Positions 5,459 to 52,698 of a stretch of DNA of 64,000 nt are shown piece after piece; position 1 is the first letter of the stretch; every line of letters begins with the position of its first letter. The notes under the pieces are model-generated. The model did no database searches. It was not told where the DNA came from and saw nothing but the letters and a program-made list of their open reading frames with translations. Source of the DNA: Bacteroidales bacterium (lineage in GTDB: Bacteria > Bacteroidota > Bacteroidia > Bacteroidales > NBLH01); the NCBI GenBank assembly GCA_050291445.1, contig JBNKJW010000196.1, forward strand, positions 3,615-67,614. Reading direction: 5' to 3'. Both the position numbers and the translations under genes were made by a program.

Positions 5459-5578
5459 TGTTTTTGGTTTTGTTTAAAAATTACAATGCAAAAGTATTTT
5501 CCATGTGTTGGTTAAAATTGGGAAATTGCGACATTATGAAATATGGCCAAAATTTAGTGTTAGGTCAAATGCAAATTG

Positions 5579-5607
5579 CCAGGTGACAACACCTGACAAG
5601 TGCAGGG
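5579..5607. repeat. REP-like palindromic motif CCAGGTGACAACACCTGACAAGTGCAGGG (copy 1)
   Basis: CAGGTG-ACAA-CACCTG forms a 6-bp stem with a tetraloop. The same motif recurs at 12903-12929 (degenerate) and twice in inverted orientation at 52617-52666. This copy lies just 3' of the GH78-like gene. Confidence 0.6.
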
Positions 5608-15619: not shown

Positions 15620-15879
15620 TTAGGGTCTGCTGAAAAAGTCAGAAGTACATTAGATACAAATTAGCAAAGCGAAGTCGTATATTAATACTTCGAGCTGAAG
15701 CTAATGAAGTAGATGATGTGCTTCTGGCTAGCCAAAGTTTCTGACGAGATTTTATTAGGTCATAAAATATAAGTACAAAGAAAAATAAGATGTTTTACCA
15801 AAACCTTGCACTTTAAACTCTGAAAAATAGTGTAAAGCGCTAGATATTAGAAGTATAAGGGTTTTTCAGCAAGCCCTAA
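15620..15879 (+). repeat. Mosaic structured repeat, copy A (terminal inverted arms + long internal hairpin)
   Basis: The arms TTAGGGTCTGCTGAAAAA (15620-15637) and TTTTTCAGCAAGCCCTAA (15862-15879) are inverted, matching 16/18. The internal hairpin is GTCAGAAGTACAT (15638-15650) with ATGTGCTTCTGGC (15716-15728). It shares an AAACCTTGCACTTT box (15801-15814) with the other copies. It starts directly after the aspA stop codon (15617-15619). Confidence 0.8.
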
Positions 15880-24811: not shown

Positions 24812-25939
24812 TTAAACTTCAACATCAAAAGTATAAAATGAAACATCATCAGATTCTGGAATAAAGGTGTAGGCAAATTTATTTTTGCTTTCTAATGCAA
24901 TTTCCATTAAACCAAGTCCCATAAGGCTTGAATCATCAATGTCTTTTTTGTGGGTACCTTCTTCGTAATGTTTGCGTATCTTTTTTATGGGCATTTTTTT
25001 AATCTCATCCAACTGGGTTTTTAAACTGGTGACTTTAGTTTGTTTTATGTGGTTACCAGTTGAAATAAAATGTTTTTTACCTTGTTGGCGGATGATGAAA
25101 ATTGCCTCTTTTTCATCATTTTTTTCTAATGAATGTAAGCTAAGGTTTTGAAGGGCCTCTAAAATAATATGGAAAGTGAGTTTTTGCACATTAACCGCTT
25201 TGGATTCAATATTGTTCTCGACCATGCTAATTACCGGATCAATTACAACAGGTGAAAAGTTTCCTTTGTGCATAACAATCAGGTTTTTGGTGTAGGTTTC
25301 TTCATGAAACTCTTTTAGCCAGTCAATGTTAACATCTAGTTTAACTTTTTTTTCTTTAGCCTCTGCAGTTTTACACTTTACTTTAATTAATAAGTAAAAG
25401 TAAGAGTAGGTATCGTCAATTTCTTCAAAATCAAAGTGCAGTTTTTGGCTTGTTTTTCTTGCCATTTCAATAAAACCAAGGCCTGCACCACCTGCTTGGG
25501 TAAACTGATTGTTAGTGAGTATTTTTCGGTAAAGTTCGTTCAACTCTTTGCCATCCAGTCGGTTTACTTCTTGGAGCTTTTGGTTAACGTACTTAATTTT
25601 TTTGTTTTCAATAAGGTTCACTGAGCCAATGTAGAAAGTTCCACCAATGTTCCTTACCATAAACATTTCTTTTCGGTATCTAAATTGCTTGTTAACAGGT
25701 TCGTCGCCATACCGTATGATGTTTTGGAAGCTTTCAATCATTAAAAAGGACAACTTATGGCGTAATTTTCTAAAGTCGTTATCTTTTGATATGTTTTTTT
25801 CGATAAGGTTTATCGATGAAATCACCATGTGGTTTGACAATGCACCCATATAAACAAAAAGCAACTTGTCGTTTTTAAAGGTGTCAAAGTATTTATAGGT
25901 CAACGAAGAATCTTCCATAAGTTGGCTTGCTTTAGGCAC
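24812..25939 (-). CDS. Tandem-duplicated DUF6272 / SiaB-like histidine-kinase-type ATPase protein
   Basis: 375-aa ORF starting at GTG 25939 or ATG 25918. It has two homologous halves. Each starts with a '(L/I)V(Y/M)xGxxS...' segment and ends with a GxGLG-type ATP-lid motif (GGAGLGFIEMARKT; LMGLGLMEIALES). Confidence 0.6.
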   Translation of the reverse strand: MPKASQLMEDSSLTYKYFDTFKNDKLLFVYMGALSNHMVISSINLIEKNISKDNDFRKLRHKLSFLMIESFQNIIRYGDEPVNKQFRYRKEMFMVRNIGGTFYIGSVNLIENKKIKYVNQKLQEVNRLDGKELNELYRKILTNNQFTQAGGAGLGFIEMARKTSQKLHFDFEEIDDTYSYFYLLIKVKCKTAEAKEKKVKLDVNIDWLKEFHEETYTKNLIVMHKGNFSPVVIDPVISMVENNIESKAVNVQKLTFHIILEALQNLSLHSLEKNDEKEAIFIIRQQGKKHFISTGNHIKQTKVTSLKTQLDEIKKMPIKKIRKHYEEGTHKKDIDDSSLMGLGLMEIALESKNKFAYTFIPESDDVSFYTFDVEV

Positions 25940-26229
25940 TAAAGTAATAATTTTTTTAAAAAGATGGAAAGCCTGCCTCTATTTAAATAACTTAAAAGGT
26001 GTTTTTCTATTGCTTATCTAGGCGAAAGAAATGATAAAGCTTCAAGCAGACATGATGAAAGAGGCTAACCTGATTAATTCATAAAAATGAATGAAAACAC
26101 AGTTTAGTGCTGAATGTTATATAGATATTTGATGTGTATCGTAAGTTTTTTTAATGTTTAGGACTTGTTTACCACTAAATCTAAATATTGCGGTACTCCG
26201 TACCTTTTCAAATCACACAAACATTTAAG

Positions 26230-26381
26230 CTACAAATATTTTCGGTGCTCTGCACCTATTAAAAAAAACAGGTTCAACATTAAAAGCAGTAGAGCTCCTT
26301 TTCCGTAATACTATGAAGGAGGAGCTACGCAATATTTGTAGATTATTAATTGACAAGTGATTTAAGGTGCAGAGCACCGAA
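26230..26381. repeat. Two interleaved perfect inverted repeats (11 bp and 17 bp)
   Basis: CTACAAATATT (26230-26240) pairs with AATATTTGTAG (26331-26341). TTCGGTGCTCTGCACCT (26241-26257) pairs with AGGTGCAGAGCACCGAA (26365-26381). The two left arms are contiguous. The 11-bp right arm lies inside the 107-bp spacer of the 17-bp pair. Confidence 0.85.
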
Positions 26382-26383
26382 TA

Positions 26384-26450
26384 CCGATTTTACTTTCAAA
26401 ATAGTCCAATTTCGGCAAAGCCTCATTCGACTATTTTCAAGTAGCATCGG
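26384..26450. other. Long imperfect hairpin
   Basis: CCGATTTTACTTTCAAAATAGTC (26384-26406) pairs with GACTATTTTCAAGTAGCATCGG (26429-26450). About 19 bp pair, in blocks of 5+5+9, with a 2-nt mismatch and a 1-nt bulge. Confidence 0.6.
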
Positions 26451-26452
26451 TA

Positions 26453-26509
26453 TTTACCATTGCAATTTATATCTTGCTTTTGGACTAAAATATAAATGCA
26501 ATTGGTATA
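26453..26509. other. AT-rich imperfect hairpin
   Basis: ACCATTGCAATTTATAT (26456-26472) pairs with ATATAAATGCAATTGGT (26490-26506), with one register slip. Confidence 0.5.
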
Positions 26510-26513
26510 ACAT

Positions 26514-26805
26514 TGGGCCTGCTGAAAAAGTCAGAGGTACATTAGCTACAACTTAGCGAAGCGATATCTTCGACCAAAGGGAGAAAACTTAGCAAAGCGA
26601 AGATGTATATGAATACTTCGAGCTGAAGCTAATGAAGTAGATGATGTGCCTCTGGCTAGGATTATAATCATTAGTTTTTTGTTACTTGAAGATAAAGTTA
26701 ATGCAAGGAAAAATTACTATTTTTTTTTAAACCTTTGCACTTTCTTGCCACTTTTTTCATGTAAATATTTAATTTTAACAGGCTTAGGCGTTTTTCAGTG
26801 AGCCC
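26514..26805 (+). repeat. Mosaic structured repeat, copy B (left module as in copy A, right module as in copy C)
   Basis: The arms are GGGCCTGCTGAAAAA (26515-26529) and TTTTTCAGTGAGCCC (26791-26805). The hairpin is GTCAGAGGTACAT (26530-26542) with ATGTGCCTCTGGC (26644-26656). The right ~150 nt (26657-26805) are ~85-90 % identical by eye to 50588-50736. TAACAT occurs on both flanks (26508-26513, 26806-26811). Confidence 0.8.
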
Positions 26806-26944
26806 TAACATACTGTTTTAAGTTTTGATAGTGGTAAACAACGGCCTAAGCAATTTTTTTTAAGATTATGCGGTAGTTTACACCTTTGACTATTTTTTTT
26901 ATATAACAGATTGCCTCATCCTCGTACCTCGTTTTCGCAATGTA

Positions 26945-26986
26945 TCATTACTCGCTTCGCTCCCCGATGCTCGGGGCGGGCAATGA
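26945..26986. other. GC-rich stem-loop in an otherwise AT-rich spacer
   Basis: TCATTACTCG (26945-26954) pairs with CGGGCAATGA (26977-26986) at 9/10. This encloses the hairpin CCCCGA-TGC-TCGGGG (26962-26976). No U-tract follows on either strand. Confidence 0.55.
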
Positions 26987-27083
26987 GAGAAGTTCCGAGA
27001 AGGTACAACGAACGAACTCCAAAGGGCTCTGCGTAGCTAACCTTTTTTTATCTGGTTGCACATTCAATAAAAAAACGGTGAGG

Positions 27084-29009
27084 TTATTCACTTTCTTTAC
27101 ATTTGCATTTATTGTTTGAATTTCTGCATAAATTGGCAAAACCTGTCTGTAACCTCCTGATATAGGCTTCGAGTTGGGCGTTTTGTGCAGATAATTGAAT
27201 AATATTAAGTTGTTTACTGTCTTGTTTTATTGTTTCACGCGTTTTGTCAATCACTTCAAGTAAGTTTTTCAACTCAATGGATACCAGCTCGTTATAGGTA
27301 GATGTACTATCTGTCAACATACTTAGTTCCAGGCATTTTTTCTTTTCTAAAACATCAAACAAAACATTGATGGTTTTTTGTTTTATTTCTTCGTTTTTTA
27401 ATGTGAGCTTGTTTTTTTCATTGGCCTGGTACCTTAGGTTATAATTGTTAATTGCTTTTGAAAGCTCATCTTTACACTTTTTACAATAGGTGTTGCCCGA
27501 TTGGTTTTCTATTTTTTCTTTTTCAACCAAACCTGTTTCGTTTGTTGCAAGCTGGTTTACATTGGCAATAATGGGAGCATAAACTTTTTGATGCAATTTA
27601 TTTTCTTTGCTGTAAATTAATTGTTTTAGTTCTTTAACCAATTCACTTTTTTGTTCGTCATCTGGTATTTTAACCGAATATAACAGGCGCAGGTTGTTTT
27701 CTTCTGCTTTTGCATCCCATTTTTTGGCCAATTTCGCACTTTCAATCAGTTCTGCAACTTCTTTGATGTTGGTCAATGAGTTTTTTTCATTTAAATACAA
27801 TCCGGCGTTAGTAATTACCGATTCGTATTTGGGCAAAAATTCGTTTTCAAATTCAGGATTTCCATAGTATTGCAACATTCTTAACTGCTTTGTTTTTAGC
27901 AGGTCGCGGTATATTTTTAAAATCACAAAGTGGTTCTTTGAATAATCGTTTGTAATGTGGTTTTTTAAATTTAATTTGTAATTACTGATGTTTAGTTTTA
28001 AATCGGCAAAAATCTCCAGAAACTCAATTAATTTCAGCTCCTGATCATAAGTTGTTTTATTGATTAATTCATTCTGAAAAGCGTTTTGGATTTTTAATTT
28101 TCGCTGGTTTAAATAGTCAAAGTTAATTTGGTCACCAATCACCAATTGCGAGTTGTACCGTGATTTATAATTGGCAATTACAATCATTGGGTATTTTTTG
28201 TATCTCACCAATTTGCCTAATACTTCCTGGTTAATTTCTGGGTTCTCAGTTGTATCAACATAATATTTTAACGAGTTGGCTATAATATTCACTTTGGTCA
28301 TGGTAGAGGGGGCAAACACAAAAATGTTTACCGAGTGCAGGCGCTTGTCAAATTCCTGACCTTCGTAAAGACGGATGGTTGAGCTAAATTTATATTGCTT
28401 GCCGGTTGTTTTGCTTTCAATGTATTTTCCCAATTCGCCAATTAAATCAAGGATAGCAATATTGGGTTTTGAAAAAGTGGACAGGTTTTGTAATTGCTTG
28501 CCAATGAGTTTCAAAAATTCATTGGTGTTTTTTTTTGTAATTGCCTCACCGCTAATTTCTGCATCAATTACTTCGTTTGATTCATTCAAAGGCAGGTTAT
28601 CAATTAACCTCACCACTTCAATGTTACCGGTTTCAACGGTGGTGAAATCTTTGCCTTCAGAAACTTTGAAATTATAGATTGGGTAAACTACATCGCCGCC
28701 AAAAAACCTGAGATTCTTAATTTTTGCCTTAATAAATAAAGATTGAAGCTCTTCGCGGCCAATTTTCTTATTTTTTCGTTTCCCGCTGGAGTTTAATGAG
28801 GCTATATCGTTTAATAAATTACTGAACTTTTGTGCATTGAGTAGGTAAAGGTCGCTTGAAAGGTATTGCCACTCCTGGCTAAAGGGATAATTGCTTTTTT
28901 GCTTTAAAGCGGTGATGGTTTTAATGGTGGTTTGTGCGCTAATTTGCTGGTAAATAGTTGATAATACCGCAATACTTATTACTACAATTAAACTTTTTGC
29001 CCTTATCAT
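27084..29009 (-). CDS. Hypothetical secreted protein, Lys/Asn-rich with long predicted coiled-coil regions
   Basis: 641-aa ORF with a signal peptide (VVISIAVLSTIYQQISAQ). It has a Cys-containing C-terminus (CKKCKDEL...CRNSNNKCKCKESE). I recognise no family. Confidence 0.55.
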   Translation of the reverse strand: MIRAKSLIVVISIAVLSTIYQQISAQTTIKTITALKQKSNYPFSQEWQYLSSDLYLLNAQKFSNLLNDIASLNSSGKRKNKKIGREELQSLFIKAKIKNLRFFGGDVVYPIYNFKVSEGKDFTTVETGNIEVVRLIDNLPLNESNEVIDAEISGEAITKKNTNEFLKLIGKQLQNLSTFSKPNIAILDLIGELGKYIESKTTGKQYKFSSTIRLYEGQEFDKRLHSVNIFVFAPSTMTKVNIIANSLKYYVDTTENPEINQEVLGKLVRYKKYPMIVIANYKSRYNSQLVIGDQINFDYLNQRKLKIQNAFQNELINKTTYDQELKLIEFLEIFADLKLNISNYKLNLKNHITNDYSKNHFVILKIYRDLLKTKQLRMLQYYGNPEFENEFLPKYESVITNAGLYLNEKNSLTNIKEVAELIESAKLAKKWDAKAEENNLRLLYSVKIPDDEQKSELVKELKQLIYSKENKLHQKVYAPIIANVNQLATNETGLVEKEKIENQSGNTYCKKCKDELSKAINNYNLRYQANEKNKLTLKNEEIKQKTINVLFDVLEKKKCLELSMLTDSTSTYNELVSIELKNLLEVIDKTRETIKQDSKQLNIIQLSAQNAQLEAYIRRLQTGFANLCRNSNNKCKCKESE

Positions 29010-50122: not shown

Positions 50123-50512
50123 GTGGCCAGAAAAATACTGATAGTAGAAGATGATAAAATGTTGTGCACCATATTTGAAATGTTCCTGACAGATCTAGGA
50201 TATGAACTTACAGGCTTTTCACAGACAGGTGCTGATGCAATTAGCAAATGTGAGGAAAATCCCCCAGATGTGGTTTTGATGGATATTCACCTTAAAGGTG
50301 ATGTTGATGGAATTGATACCGCAAAAAAAATTCACGAAGCATTTAATATCCCTGTTGTTTACGTTACCAGTGATATTGAACAAGAAACTATCCTCAAAGC
50401 AATTTATAAAAACACCTACGGCTTTTTAATGAAACCTATTTATCAGTCTTCTTTAAGGGTAGCAATAGAATTTGCTTTTGCTAAACATATTTACGATAAT
50501 TCTGAAAACTGA
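50123..50512 (+). CDS. Stand-alone response regulator receiver (CheY-like) protein
   Basis: 129-aa ORF with a GTG start. It has KILIVEDD, DVVLMDIHL (phospho-acceptor Asp), PVVYVTS and a conserved Lys in LMKP. There is no output domain and no kinase gene nearby. Confidence 0.85.
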   Translation: MARKILIVEDDKMLCTIFEMFLTDLGYELTGFSQTGADAISKCEENPPDVVLMDIHLKGDVDGIDTAKKIHEAFNIPVVYVTSDIEQETILKAIYKNTYGFLMKPIYQSSLRVAIEFAFAKHIYDNSEN

Positions 50513-50739
50513 GCCCTATATCTTTGTATTAATTAAGGTCTGGGCTGCACATTTTACTGTTATTTAATATGATGCCGCTCAACTGGCTAGCATAATAATC
50601 ATTAGTTTTTTGCTACTTGAAGGTGAAGTTAATGCAAGGAAAAATTACTATTTTTTAAAACACCTTTGCACTTTTTACAACTTCTTTTATGTAAGTGTTT
50701 AATTTTAATAGGCTTAGGCGTTTTTTAGTGAGCCCTATT
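50510..50739 (+). repeat. Mosaic structured repeat, copy C, bounded by a 10-bp direct repeat
   Basis: TGAGCCCTAT occurs at 50510-50519, overlapping the regulator's TGA stop, and again at 50730-50739. The shortened closing arms are GGGCTGCAC (50542-50550) and GTGAGCCC (50729-50736). It has a CTGGCTAG box (50583-50590) and a CCTTTGCACTTT box (50664-50675). The right ~150 nt match copy B. Confidence 0.75.
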
Positions 50740-50877
50740 TATTCTGCTCATTTATTGTTATTTACACTGTTTATTTTGTTTTTTTACTACCCCGTTTTGT
50801 GGAAATCTTGCTAAATTGCATCTATAATTTACTATTAGCACTCTTATTCATTCACTATAAACATAAAATATAACATA

Positions 50878-52616: not shown

Positions 52617-52666
52617 GTCAGGTGACAACACCTAACAAGTGCATCAGCCAGGTGTTGTCACCTGGC
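52617..52666. repeat. Two inverted copies of the CAGGTGACAACACCTG motif forming a 17-bp hairpin
   Basis: GTCAGGTGACAACACCT (52617-52633) pairs with AGGTGTTGTCACCTGGC (52650-52666). The 15-bp core is perfect, with one wobble and one GC pair added. It lies between convergent genes. Confidence 0.8.
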
Positions 52667-52698
52667 TAATTACCAGAAATATCAAATTTGACTTAACA

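Follow-up and report, generated by a model that had tools for sequence, protein, structure and literature searches.

An intergenic repeat of a Bacteroidales genome with IS5-family ends and a covarying hairpin

A 64,000-nt window of contig JBNKJW010000196.1 from a Bacteroidales bacterium carries, at 26514-26805, a repeat (copy B) that has the hexamer TAACAT on both sides. Does this pair of hexamers record a transposition, and if so, what kind of element was inserted, and how did its apparently mosaic make-up arise? An earlier reading made from the letters alone (the sequence-only reading) had placed the hexamers at 26508-26513 and 26806-26811, where we also found them. Our analysis indicates that copy B is very probably a non-autonomous transposable element of the miniature inverted-repeat type (MITE), derived from an IS5-family insertion sequence (IS). 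It appears to be an internal-deletion or replacement derivative of such an IS: B keeps both IS termini together with about 80 nt of the IS 5' region, down to a vestigial transposase start (CCTTTGCACTTT), and a structured hairpin of about 95 nt takes the place of the interior. The parts of copy B are as follows, with all positions counted in the whole window.

26514 to 26805, plus strand: MITE copy B, 292 bp with the extra T at 26514 included, 291 bp without it (GGG to CCC); subfamily 2, with B-type hairpin, 36-nt block and R2 right half
26508 to 26513: TAACAT, left copy of the duplication; as a 7-mer, TAACAT+T on the left against TAACATA on the right
26806 to 26811: TAACAT, right copy of the duplication
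26515 to 26530, plus strand: left terminal arm GGGCCTGCTGAAAAAG, the end next to the transposase stop codon in the presumed parent IS
26529 to 26659, plus strand: hairpin module, about 95 nt plus the 36-nt block
about 26552 to 26587, plus strand: 36-nt block, a partial tandem duplicate of the hairpin 5' side, bounded by direct repeats ACTTAGC(G/A)AAGCGA
26660 to 26805, plus strand: right module R2, 146 nt, from the IS end upstream of the transposase gene
26732 to 26743, minus strand: motif CCTTTGCACTTT, reverse complement of AAAGTGCAAAGG, vestige of the transposase start (ATG/GTG-CAA-GG, 'MQG...')
26790 to 26805, plus strand: right terminal arm GTTTTTCAGTGAGCCC, the promoter/start end of the presumed parent IS

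A single extra T (26514) sits between the left TAACAT and GGGCC (26515), and B ends in GCCC at 26805. The terminal inverted repeats read GGGCCTGCTGAAAAA at one end and TTTTTCAGTGAGCCC at the other, and in related copies the arms are perfect repeats of 15-16 nt. Only short open reading frames (ORFs) of 41-68 amino acids overlap B, which has no coding capacity; its size is under the roughly 600 bp typical of MITEs, and it holds neither a transposase nor a conserved ORF.

The nature of the TAACAT pair is settled by an empty site. The target of B straddles the junction between two other small repeats, Y and X, and contig C86 of the same genome (C numbers denote contigs of this genome, G000) carries a paralogous X+Y nest without B. 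A single TAACAT, followed by A, stands there at C86:23923-23928, and the window with 26514-26811 taken out aligns to C86:23860-23990 without a gap through the junction. B inserted precisely at the Y/X junction, duplicating TAACAT(A), and the single TAACAT of the empty paralogous site indicates that the pair is a real target-site duplication. Other duplication lengths were considered and rejected. A TA-only duplication (IS630/Tc1-mariner type) would give an empty site reading ...TAACATAACAT..., and the observed one reads ...TAACATACT...; duplications of 3-bp TWA (Harbinger-like), 4-bp YTAR (IS5 proper) or TTAA (piggyBac/IS1380-like) are likewise ruled out by the empty-site structure.

The flanks of the other copies follow the same pattern. 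The assembly holding the window comprises 6.94 Mb at 35% G+C in 307 contigs, is 94% complete, and has many contigs that end in repeats. Enumerating copies genome-wide and inspecting their flanks, a check proposed in the sequence-only reading, gave about 102 family loci, many at contig ends (blastn with copies A, B and C). Aligned full copies read TA-nn-TA, then GGG...CCC, then TA-nn-TA. Perfect direct 6- or 7-mer flanks of the form TA-N2-3-TA surround 15 of the 31 complete, non-redundant copies, compared with a chance level, obtained by re-pairing left and right flanks, of 4.2 on average and 11 at most in 20,000 trials. In 25 of the 31, the two flanks differ by no more than one mismatch. The six non-palindromic perfect pairs (TATTTA, TATCTA, TAACTA, TAGTTA) are all direct and none is inverted, and 7-mer cases resembling B occur in C94 (TATTTTA) and C66 (TAATTTA). 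The earlier proposal that the TAACAT pair arose by transposition is therefore borne out by the empty site and by the genome-wide excess, and like flanks are also found around autonomous IS5-family elements in other genomes.

The ends of the family lead to these autonomous elements. The 18-mer terminus TAGGGTCTGCTGAAAAAS occurs in at least 119 public genome stretches (L numbers), whose carriers include Bacteroidales, Flavobacteriales, Chitinophagales, Cytophagales, Microcystis and other cyanobacteria, Elusimicrobia, Chlorobi and others. When arms were paired in these loci, some 50 short elements of 130-390 bp and roughly ten long ones of 976-1830 bp emerged, and matching TA-N2-3-TA repeats flank most of them. 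The family termini GGGYCTGCTGAAAAA...TTTTTCAGCAGRCCC and the TA-N2-3-TA flanks are common to 1.6-1.8-kb insertion sequences of other genomes. The following long elements have matching flanks.

L066: 1587 bp, TAAGTA
L166: 1648 bp, TACTTTA
L079: 1707 bp, TAAATA
L143: 1330 bp, TAATTA

The same ends are found on these four and on L128 and L148; L066, L079, L128 and L148 span 1587-1749 bp, the flanks of L128 and L148 being non-matching. The transposases of the long elements measure 440-555 amino acids. Against NCBIfam NF033578 (IS5-family transposase, cut-off 275), those of L066, L079, L128 and L148 reach 347-369 bits; the truncated ORF of L143, from Tannerellaceae, reaches 217 bits and also matches Pfam DDE_Tnp_1_2. 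At least five independent long elements from different phyla pair these ends with an NF033578-type gene.

Beyond the arms, it is the right module of B that is homologous to the IS internally, the left hairpin being without an IS counterpart. R2 of B runs collinearly with the regions at the 5' ends of the IS elements. The transposase gene lies on the minus strand relative to the orientation of B in the window, indicating that the right arm of B corresponds to the promoter/start end of the IS. The transposase start region is the reverse complement of CCTT(T)GCACTTT, a motif that the sequence-only reading had found in all three copies, and reads ATG-CAA-GG ('MQG') in L079 and L128. The start motif is ATGCAAGG in these two elements and GTGCAAAG in an IS remnant of the sister species G008, and it bears or directly precedes the transposase start codon in L079, L128, L143 and the remnant. 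This remnant (G008:C6) is a 938-bp transposase-bearing piece, one end of which, GGGCTCACTGAAAAAC, is identical to the right arm of B in reverse complement; the motif TTTGCACTTT stands just before its transposase start, whose region reads GTG-CAA-AG.

We ask whether a transposase of another family (e.g. IS1595/IS1016-like, Tn3-like or IS630-like) could instead mobilise the element, its IS5-family ends being a coincidence. Ends of the GGG(G)CTG type occur in other families too, the genome itself has no NF033578 transposase, and in G002 and G011, which are other species of the genus, the elements with full-length NF033578 genes carry other ends. We nevertheless consider this explanation very improbable, because at least five long elements of different phyla join the ends to an NF033578 gene, three of them with matching duplications (L066, L079, L166), because the MITE keeps the IS 5' region as far as the vestige of the transposase start, and because the empty site excludes the TA-only duplication of IS630. 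Several other candidates for a partner were set aside. Matches to PF01609 and PF13751 belong to other IS elements with different ends (C102, L031, L032); and L028 (G371) has the left arm only, with no right arm and no transposase nearby. The Microcystis locus L106 holds only a fragment of this transposase type near the terminus. ISMae6 could not be confirmed by name as the parent, only its length and family being given in PMC2779907. A literature string search for the termini returned nothing relevant, only XBP1 primers being matched.

Some findings weigh against the derivation of B from an IS5-family IS. Neither an NF033578-type transposase (tblastn with the L143 transposase; NF033578 profile) nor a cognate autonomous element was found in the assembly of this genome, which is incomplete, although possession of such a partner is not a strictly defining feature of MITEs. 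About half of the copies have imperfect flank repeats, and the empty site is a paralogous copy of the X+Y nest rather than an allele at the locus of B itself. The duplication may equally be 6-7 bp or, if the TA dinucleotides belong to the element ends, 2-3 bp, the same empty site being predicted in both cases. Current mobility and the mobilising enzyme are points that we infer from sequence. Searches of this genome for inverted arm-like pairs 550-4000 bp apart gave no long element, and its multi-copy ORFs formed only 3 trivial clusters.

In the mechanism that we propose for an IS5-family-derived MITE, an NF033578-type (IS5-family) DDE transposase supplied in trans would bind the arms, excise the element and integrate it at TA-N2-3-TA sites. 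Staggered cuts would then give a 6-7-bp duplication, or equally a 2-3-bp one if the TA dinucleotides are part of the ends. Selection would keep the hairpin of the plus strand folded. The family varies through a slippage-prone 36-nt duplication, internal deletions, co-propagated nested insertions and rare recombination between copies.

The apparent mosaic structure of B raises a separate issue. The sequence-only reading had described a left half like copy A and a right half like copy C, and both resemblances hold. The two copies are as follows.

15623 to 15876, plus strand: copy A, subfamily 1 (A-type hairpin and R1), with flanks TAGTTA and TAAATA; 104.6 bits with the hairpin covariance model
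50567 to 50735, plus strand: copy C, subfamily 2, left arm and most of the hairpin lost, with clear homology from CTGGCTAG (50583)

The left half of B is identical to copy A at 103 of 111 positions with the indel set aside (93%), or 82-91% in two ungapped blocks (82% and 91%), and its right half agrees with copy C (50583-50735) at 87.7% identity (88.5% by blastn over 156 nt). We scored 54 hairpin-bearing copies for diagnostic bases, about 40 of which could be scored for linkage of hairpin and right half. Subfamily 1 combines an A-type hairpin (AGAAG/CTTCT stem, TCGTATATTA loop) with R1 in 8 copies, and subfamily 2 a B-type hairpin (AGAGG/CCTCT, ATGTATAWGA) with R2 in about 31. In about 38 of the 40 scorable copies, the type of hairpin agrees with that of the right half. 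The left half of B bears all diagnostic bases of subfamily 2, including the compensatory pair AGAGG/CCTCT (AGAAG/CTTCT in A), and its exact architecture recurs with 92-95% identity at at least 8 other loci (C107, C56, C89, C73, C259, C67, C204, C37). Other copies fall into classes without the 36-nt block, with the right half of A, with an additional 145-bp insert or with no left hairpin at all. At 146 nt apiece, R1 and R2 align collinearly with 60% identity; their equal length and collinearity indicate diverged homologues, not foreign modules. The statement that only the closing arms and short motifs are common to all three copies is thus incorrect. Copy B is an ordinary member of the commoner subfamily and not a fresh A/C chimera, and its mosaic look comes mainly from unequal divergence, with a conserved left half (93%) and a homologous right half that has drifted (60%).

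Alternatively, B could be a recent chimera of A-type and C-type elements, made by recombination or by template switching in gap repair, in a family that evolves mainly by swapping halves. Two copies do combine types: C52 (C52:56628-56923), the one clear recombinant, joins a B-type hairpin to R1, and C66 has a mixed terminus in which a C-type terminus is joined to an A-type hairpin. Recombination or gene conversion of the left half could also cause the disparity between left halves (93% identical between subfamilies) and right halves (60%), and many copies have non-matching flanks, as after recombination between copies. We regard this alternative as unlikely, however. It is at odds with the concordance of hairpin and right-half types, with the subfamily-2 bases in the left half of B, with the full copies that share its architecture and with the collinearity of R1 and R2, and the uneven divergence is explained by purifying selection on the left half, the hairpin being conserved with different right halves elsewhere. 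Exchange between copies is real but rare. What survives of the proposed modular family, next to C52 and C66, is a set of changes by block, deletion and nesting; frequent exchange of halves has little support, given their linkage in about 38 of 40 copies.

These modular changes comprise loss or gain of the 36-nt block, hairpin-less deletion derivatives, and nested MITEs propagated with the element. The block, reported as an insertion by which B departs from copy A, is present at about 26552-26587 and partly repeats the following CTTAGCAAAGCGAAG...CTTCGA, but it is not private to B: it occurs in 7 of the 8 subfamily-1 copies, among which copy A alone lacks it, and in about 17 of the 31 subfamily-2 copies. 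Related MITEs of other genomes lack it. The block is best read as a duplication from the ancestor of this genome's family that was later lost repeatedly by slippage, copy A being one such loss. Hairpin-less derivatives of about 160 bp with a shared deletion junction, GGGCC/TCTG, lie at different loci in C66, C77 and C193, each with a perfect duplication of its own (TAATTTA, TAACTA and TAATTA, respectively), and a further one in C206 has another junction (GGGCCTGGCTAGC) and TAGCTA flanks. Their presence at separate loci with their own duplications indicates that the hairpin is dispensable for mobility. Copy C has TATTTA at 50561-50566, repeated right after the right arm (50736-50741). A right-terminus-like GAGCCCTA overlaps the stop codon of a response-regulator-like ORF upstream of copy C (50512-50519). 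The state of copy C, with the TATTTA pair and GAGCCCTA, may reflect in-situ truncation or chance.

Other repeats interrupt copies of the family. A 145-bp foreign MITE (ends TACCAAACCG... and ...CATTCGGTA) lies at one R2 position in at least 8 copies at different loci, implying that the composite was propagated as a unit. These copies are listed here.

C37:4800-5245, C51:9592-10007 and C33:30543-30950: copies with the nested 145-bp MITE
C137, C157, C179, C85 and C11: further copies with the nested 145-bp MITE

A CTAG-bounded repeat of about 110 nt (CTAGTGTCATGTCAAAGCTAATTTGTCAGGTGACAACACCTGACAAGTGCAC...) interrupts copies in C48, C85, C120 and C222 and is also seen in the window at 5573-5604 and 52640-52671. 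The repeat AGCACATATCTGGTATAATTCCGAATTTCTGTGTTGAATATTTTATGTCGAACTCAGGTTA lies inside or abuts copies at C75:6300-6400, C48:58930-59000 and C101:26650-26710 and in C206, C197 and C285. In the copy at C186:20301-20353, the sequence runs into the 36-nt block (...CTTAGCGAAGCGA) and is then broken by a long insert of higher G+C content (GACCTGTGTGCCAAGAATTC...). Solo left arms in C14, C75, C76, C186 and C268 were considered as ends of longer elements and rejected, these copies being truncated or interrupted by other repeats. C268:15066-15190 and C18:3400-3700 have a common left flank and left arm and then diverge, C18 holding a full copy and C268/C14 truncated ones, which hints at strain heterogeneity or an assembly fork at the MITE.

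Copies of the family are intergenic, with 2 of 104 anchor matches inside crude ORFs. A weak tendency in these crude calls is for the right arm to be turned towards the 3' end of a converging gene (27 cases versus 11), with no bias on the left side (20 versus 24). The 1.06-kb ORF-free, hairpin-rich intergenic region that holds B consists of three nested MITEs, of which the other two are as follows.

26157 to 26851, plus strand: host element X, a separate MITE of about 290 bp with ends TTAGGCACTTGTTTACCACTA... and ...TAGTGGTAAACAACGGCCTAA, which now contains Y and B
26381 to 26507, plus strand: element Y, a MITE of about 127-131 bp with ends ATACCGATT... and ...AATTGGTA, at a TA inside X

Uninterrupted X copies (C276:14143-14421, C188:10312-10589) read ...GCACCGTAACATACTG..., and further copies occur in C136, C222 and G008:C97. 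The inverted repeats that interleave at 26230-26381 are part of X itself, which is present in multiple copies. X-only copies read CACCGTAACATACTG at the Y site, where the window and C86 carry Y flanked by TA. The ends of Y are of the ATACCRATT type and its TA flanks fit an IS630/Tc1-like duplication; G008 has more than 15 Y copies. Within this intergenic nest, a G+C-richer stretch at 26900-27040 (ttgcctcatcctcgtacc...gggcaatgagagaag...) matches G005:C855, from another species of the genus, at 88% over 49 nt and probably belongs to a further repeat family. Nested small repeats are unusually abundant in this genome. The genes that flank the nest, 24812-25939 (DUF6272 protein) and 27084-29009, are both on the minus strand. 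A scan of 26000-27100 for sigma-70 promoters and intrinsic terminators, with a model not made for Bacteroidota promoters, found none inside B.

Comparison with relatives, which the sequence-only reading had proposed as a test of presence or absence at this site, showed a difference. The G008 orthologues of the two flanking genes (compared over 25500-26016 and 27081-27572) are 80% and 75% identical, and the gap between them is a few tens of bases versus 1,064 bp here; the whole 1.06-kb nest is absent from the orthologous intergenic region. Full-length copies of the B family occur in 2 of the 12 genomes of the genus, this one and G008, with only short fragment matches in four others. The G008 copies are 93-94% identical to B, and one of them, through its single matchable flank, leads to a region of this genome (C138) with no element nearby. 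Since the copies are far more alike than the orthologous genes and the C138 site has no element, we infer that the family moved between the lineages after their split. Across families B, X and Y, the MITE copies of the two species (e.g. G008:C143:47865-48155) match at 92-96% identity, against 75-80% for orthologous genes, which suggests that the small-repeat mobilome was exchanged horizontally, and recently, between them. The 23-nt left arm (up to 3 mismatches) is found in 11 of 401 genomes sampled from the order, with 0-1 matches for a reversed-pattern control. The family is both multi-copy and patchily distributed.

The hairpin is the less ordinary feature of an otherwise ordinary element. 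Its outer stem is long (AGTCAGAGGTACAT / ATGTGCCTCTGGCT) and is followed inwards by inner stems, with GTAT...ATAC at the apex; the predicted fold of the whole B plus strand has a free energy of -80.3 kcal/mol (z = -3.7). Nine left halves from seven genomes, aligned with MAFFT, yield a consensus of 28 pairs, 16 of them with compensatory changes, and 96.4% of cells paired, with 0 of 500 shuffles as good. The covariance model built from this alignment scores the B hairpin at 69.8 bits and finds the module in further MITEs from metagenome-assembled genomes (MAGs) of Bacteroidales, Saprospiraceae and Crocinitomicaceae. With 25 sequences, 96.8% of cells are paired and 22 of the 28 pairs show compensatory changes; this larger alignment was fitted to the model, and the nine-sequence alignment is the fairer test. 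G.U-type cells number 32 on the plus strand versus 1 on the complement, indicating selection on a single strand, antisense to the parental transposase. The hairpin is conserved across distant genomes with different right halves, and it was not seen in autonomous elements. Rfam returned 0 matches at the gathering threshold over the window and, in a permissive search of 26480-26840, only two chance-level matches with E-values above 3.

Such a structure might suggest that B is a host structured RNA gene or regulatory repeat (REP/BOX/ERIC-like, or a small RNA family) spread by duplication or recombination, with the TAACAT pair due to chance. The strand-specific covariation of the left hairpin is strong, the z-score of the plus-strand fold points the same way, and the copies are intergenic. 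Against this, the empty site has one TAACAT, direct flanks are in excess genome-wide, and the termini and duplication pattern equal those of transposase-encoding IS5-family elements. Hairpin-less derivatives have duplications of their own, no Rfam family matches, and the G008 copies are 93-94% identical to B where the flanking genes are at 75-80%. As the sole explanation a host RNA repeat is, in our view, already refuted, and we accord it almost no probability. For the IS5-derived MITE, a role of the hairpin at the RNA level, apart from transposition, seems most likely, a view that we hold with modest confidence; that hairpin-less derivatives still moved argues for a function unrelated to transposition. 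Tentatively, and with rather less than even confidence, we suggest that the 95-nt hairpin is an undescribed structured RNA that IS5-type MITEs carry as cargo and that has reached different Bacteroidota (Bacteroidales, Saprospiraceae, Crocinitomicaceae) by horizontal spread. If this is true, the hairpin would act as RNA and not as a passive palindrome, perhaps as a processed small RNA, as a structure that stabilises or insulates transcripts, or by regulating the parental IS.

These findings bear on the following: 1) about 100 similar loci fragment this assembly; 2) a cross-phylum group of IS5-family elements and MITEs is defined by the terminal signature TAGGGYCTGCTGAAAAA and a consistent TA-N2-3-TA target, and the signature is useful for repeat masking and IS annotation; and 3) the covarying, strand-specific hairpin is a candidate new RNA motif spread by a mobile element.

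Among known small repeats, Correia elements of Neisseria, RUP/BOX of Streptococcus pneumoniae and ERIC/REP resemble the B family in high copy number, intergenic position, length variants due to internal blocks, and long transcript hairpins. Correia elements duplicate TA only, and BOX and REP are without target duplications and IS-type ends. None of these is known to share sequence with the B family. Closer in kind are BrickBuilt and MITEPgRS/MITE464 of Porphyromonas gingivalis and ATR of N. meningitidis, which are IS5-family-derived MITEs (PMC4596501). Like B, the P. gingivalis and Neisseria MITEs are small, non-coding, multi-copy, composite, often nested and intergenic, with inverted ends that match resident or related IS5-family elements. 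However, these MITEs have unrelated ends (GAGACCTTTGCA in P. gingivalis) and tandem minisatellites instead of a covarying hairpin, and their duplications are short and irregular, compared with the consistent TA-N2-3-TA here.

The nearest relatives by termini are found in Microcystis and in the long elements themselves. MITEs of 150-233 bp in Microcystis bear the same termini and TAnnTA flanks (L069, TATCTA; L142, TAAATA; L078, TAACTA), and MaeMITE families of this genus are described in PMC2779907 (Table 1 there), as is ISMae6, an IS5-family element of 1686 bp. The interiors of these MITEs are different, and the hairpin module was not found in the Microcystis loci. The NF033578-type IS of 1.6-1.8 kb (Tannerellaceae, Saprospiraceae, Neomarinimicrobiota and other MAGs) has identical arms, GGGTCTGCTGAAAAA / TTTTTCAGCAGACCC, and the same TA-N2-3-TA, and shares with the MITE the stretch that runs from the end on the promoter side down to the start motif of the transposase; unlike this IS, B is without a transposase and has a hairpin interior that the IS does not contain. 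Copy B is thus an element of an ordinary kind, the IS5-family-derived MITEs, and a new member of it.

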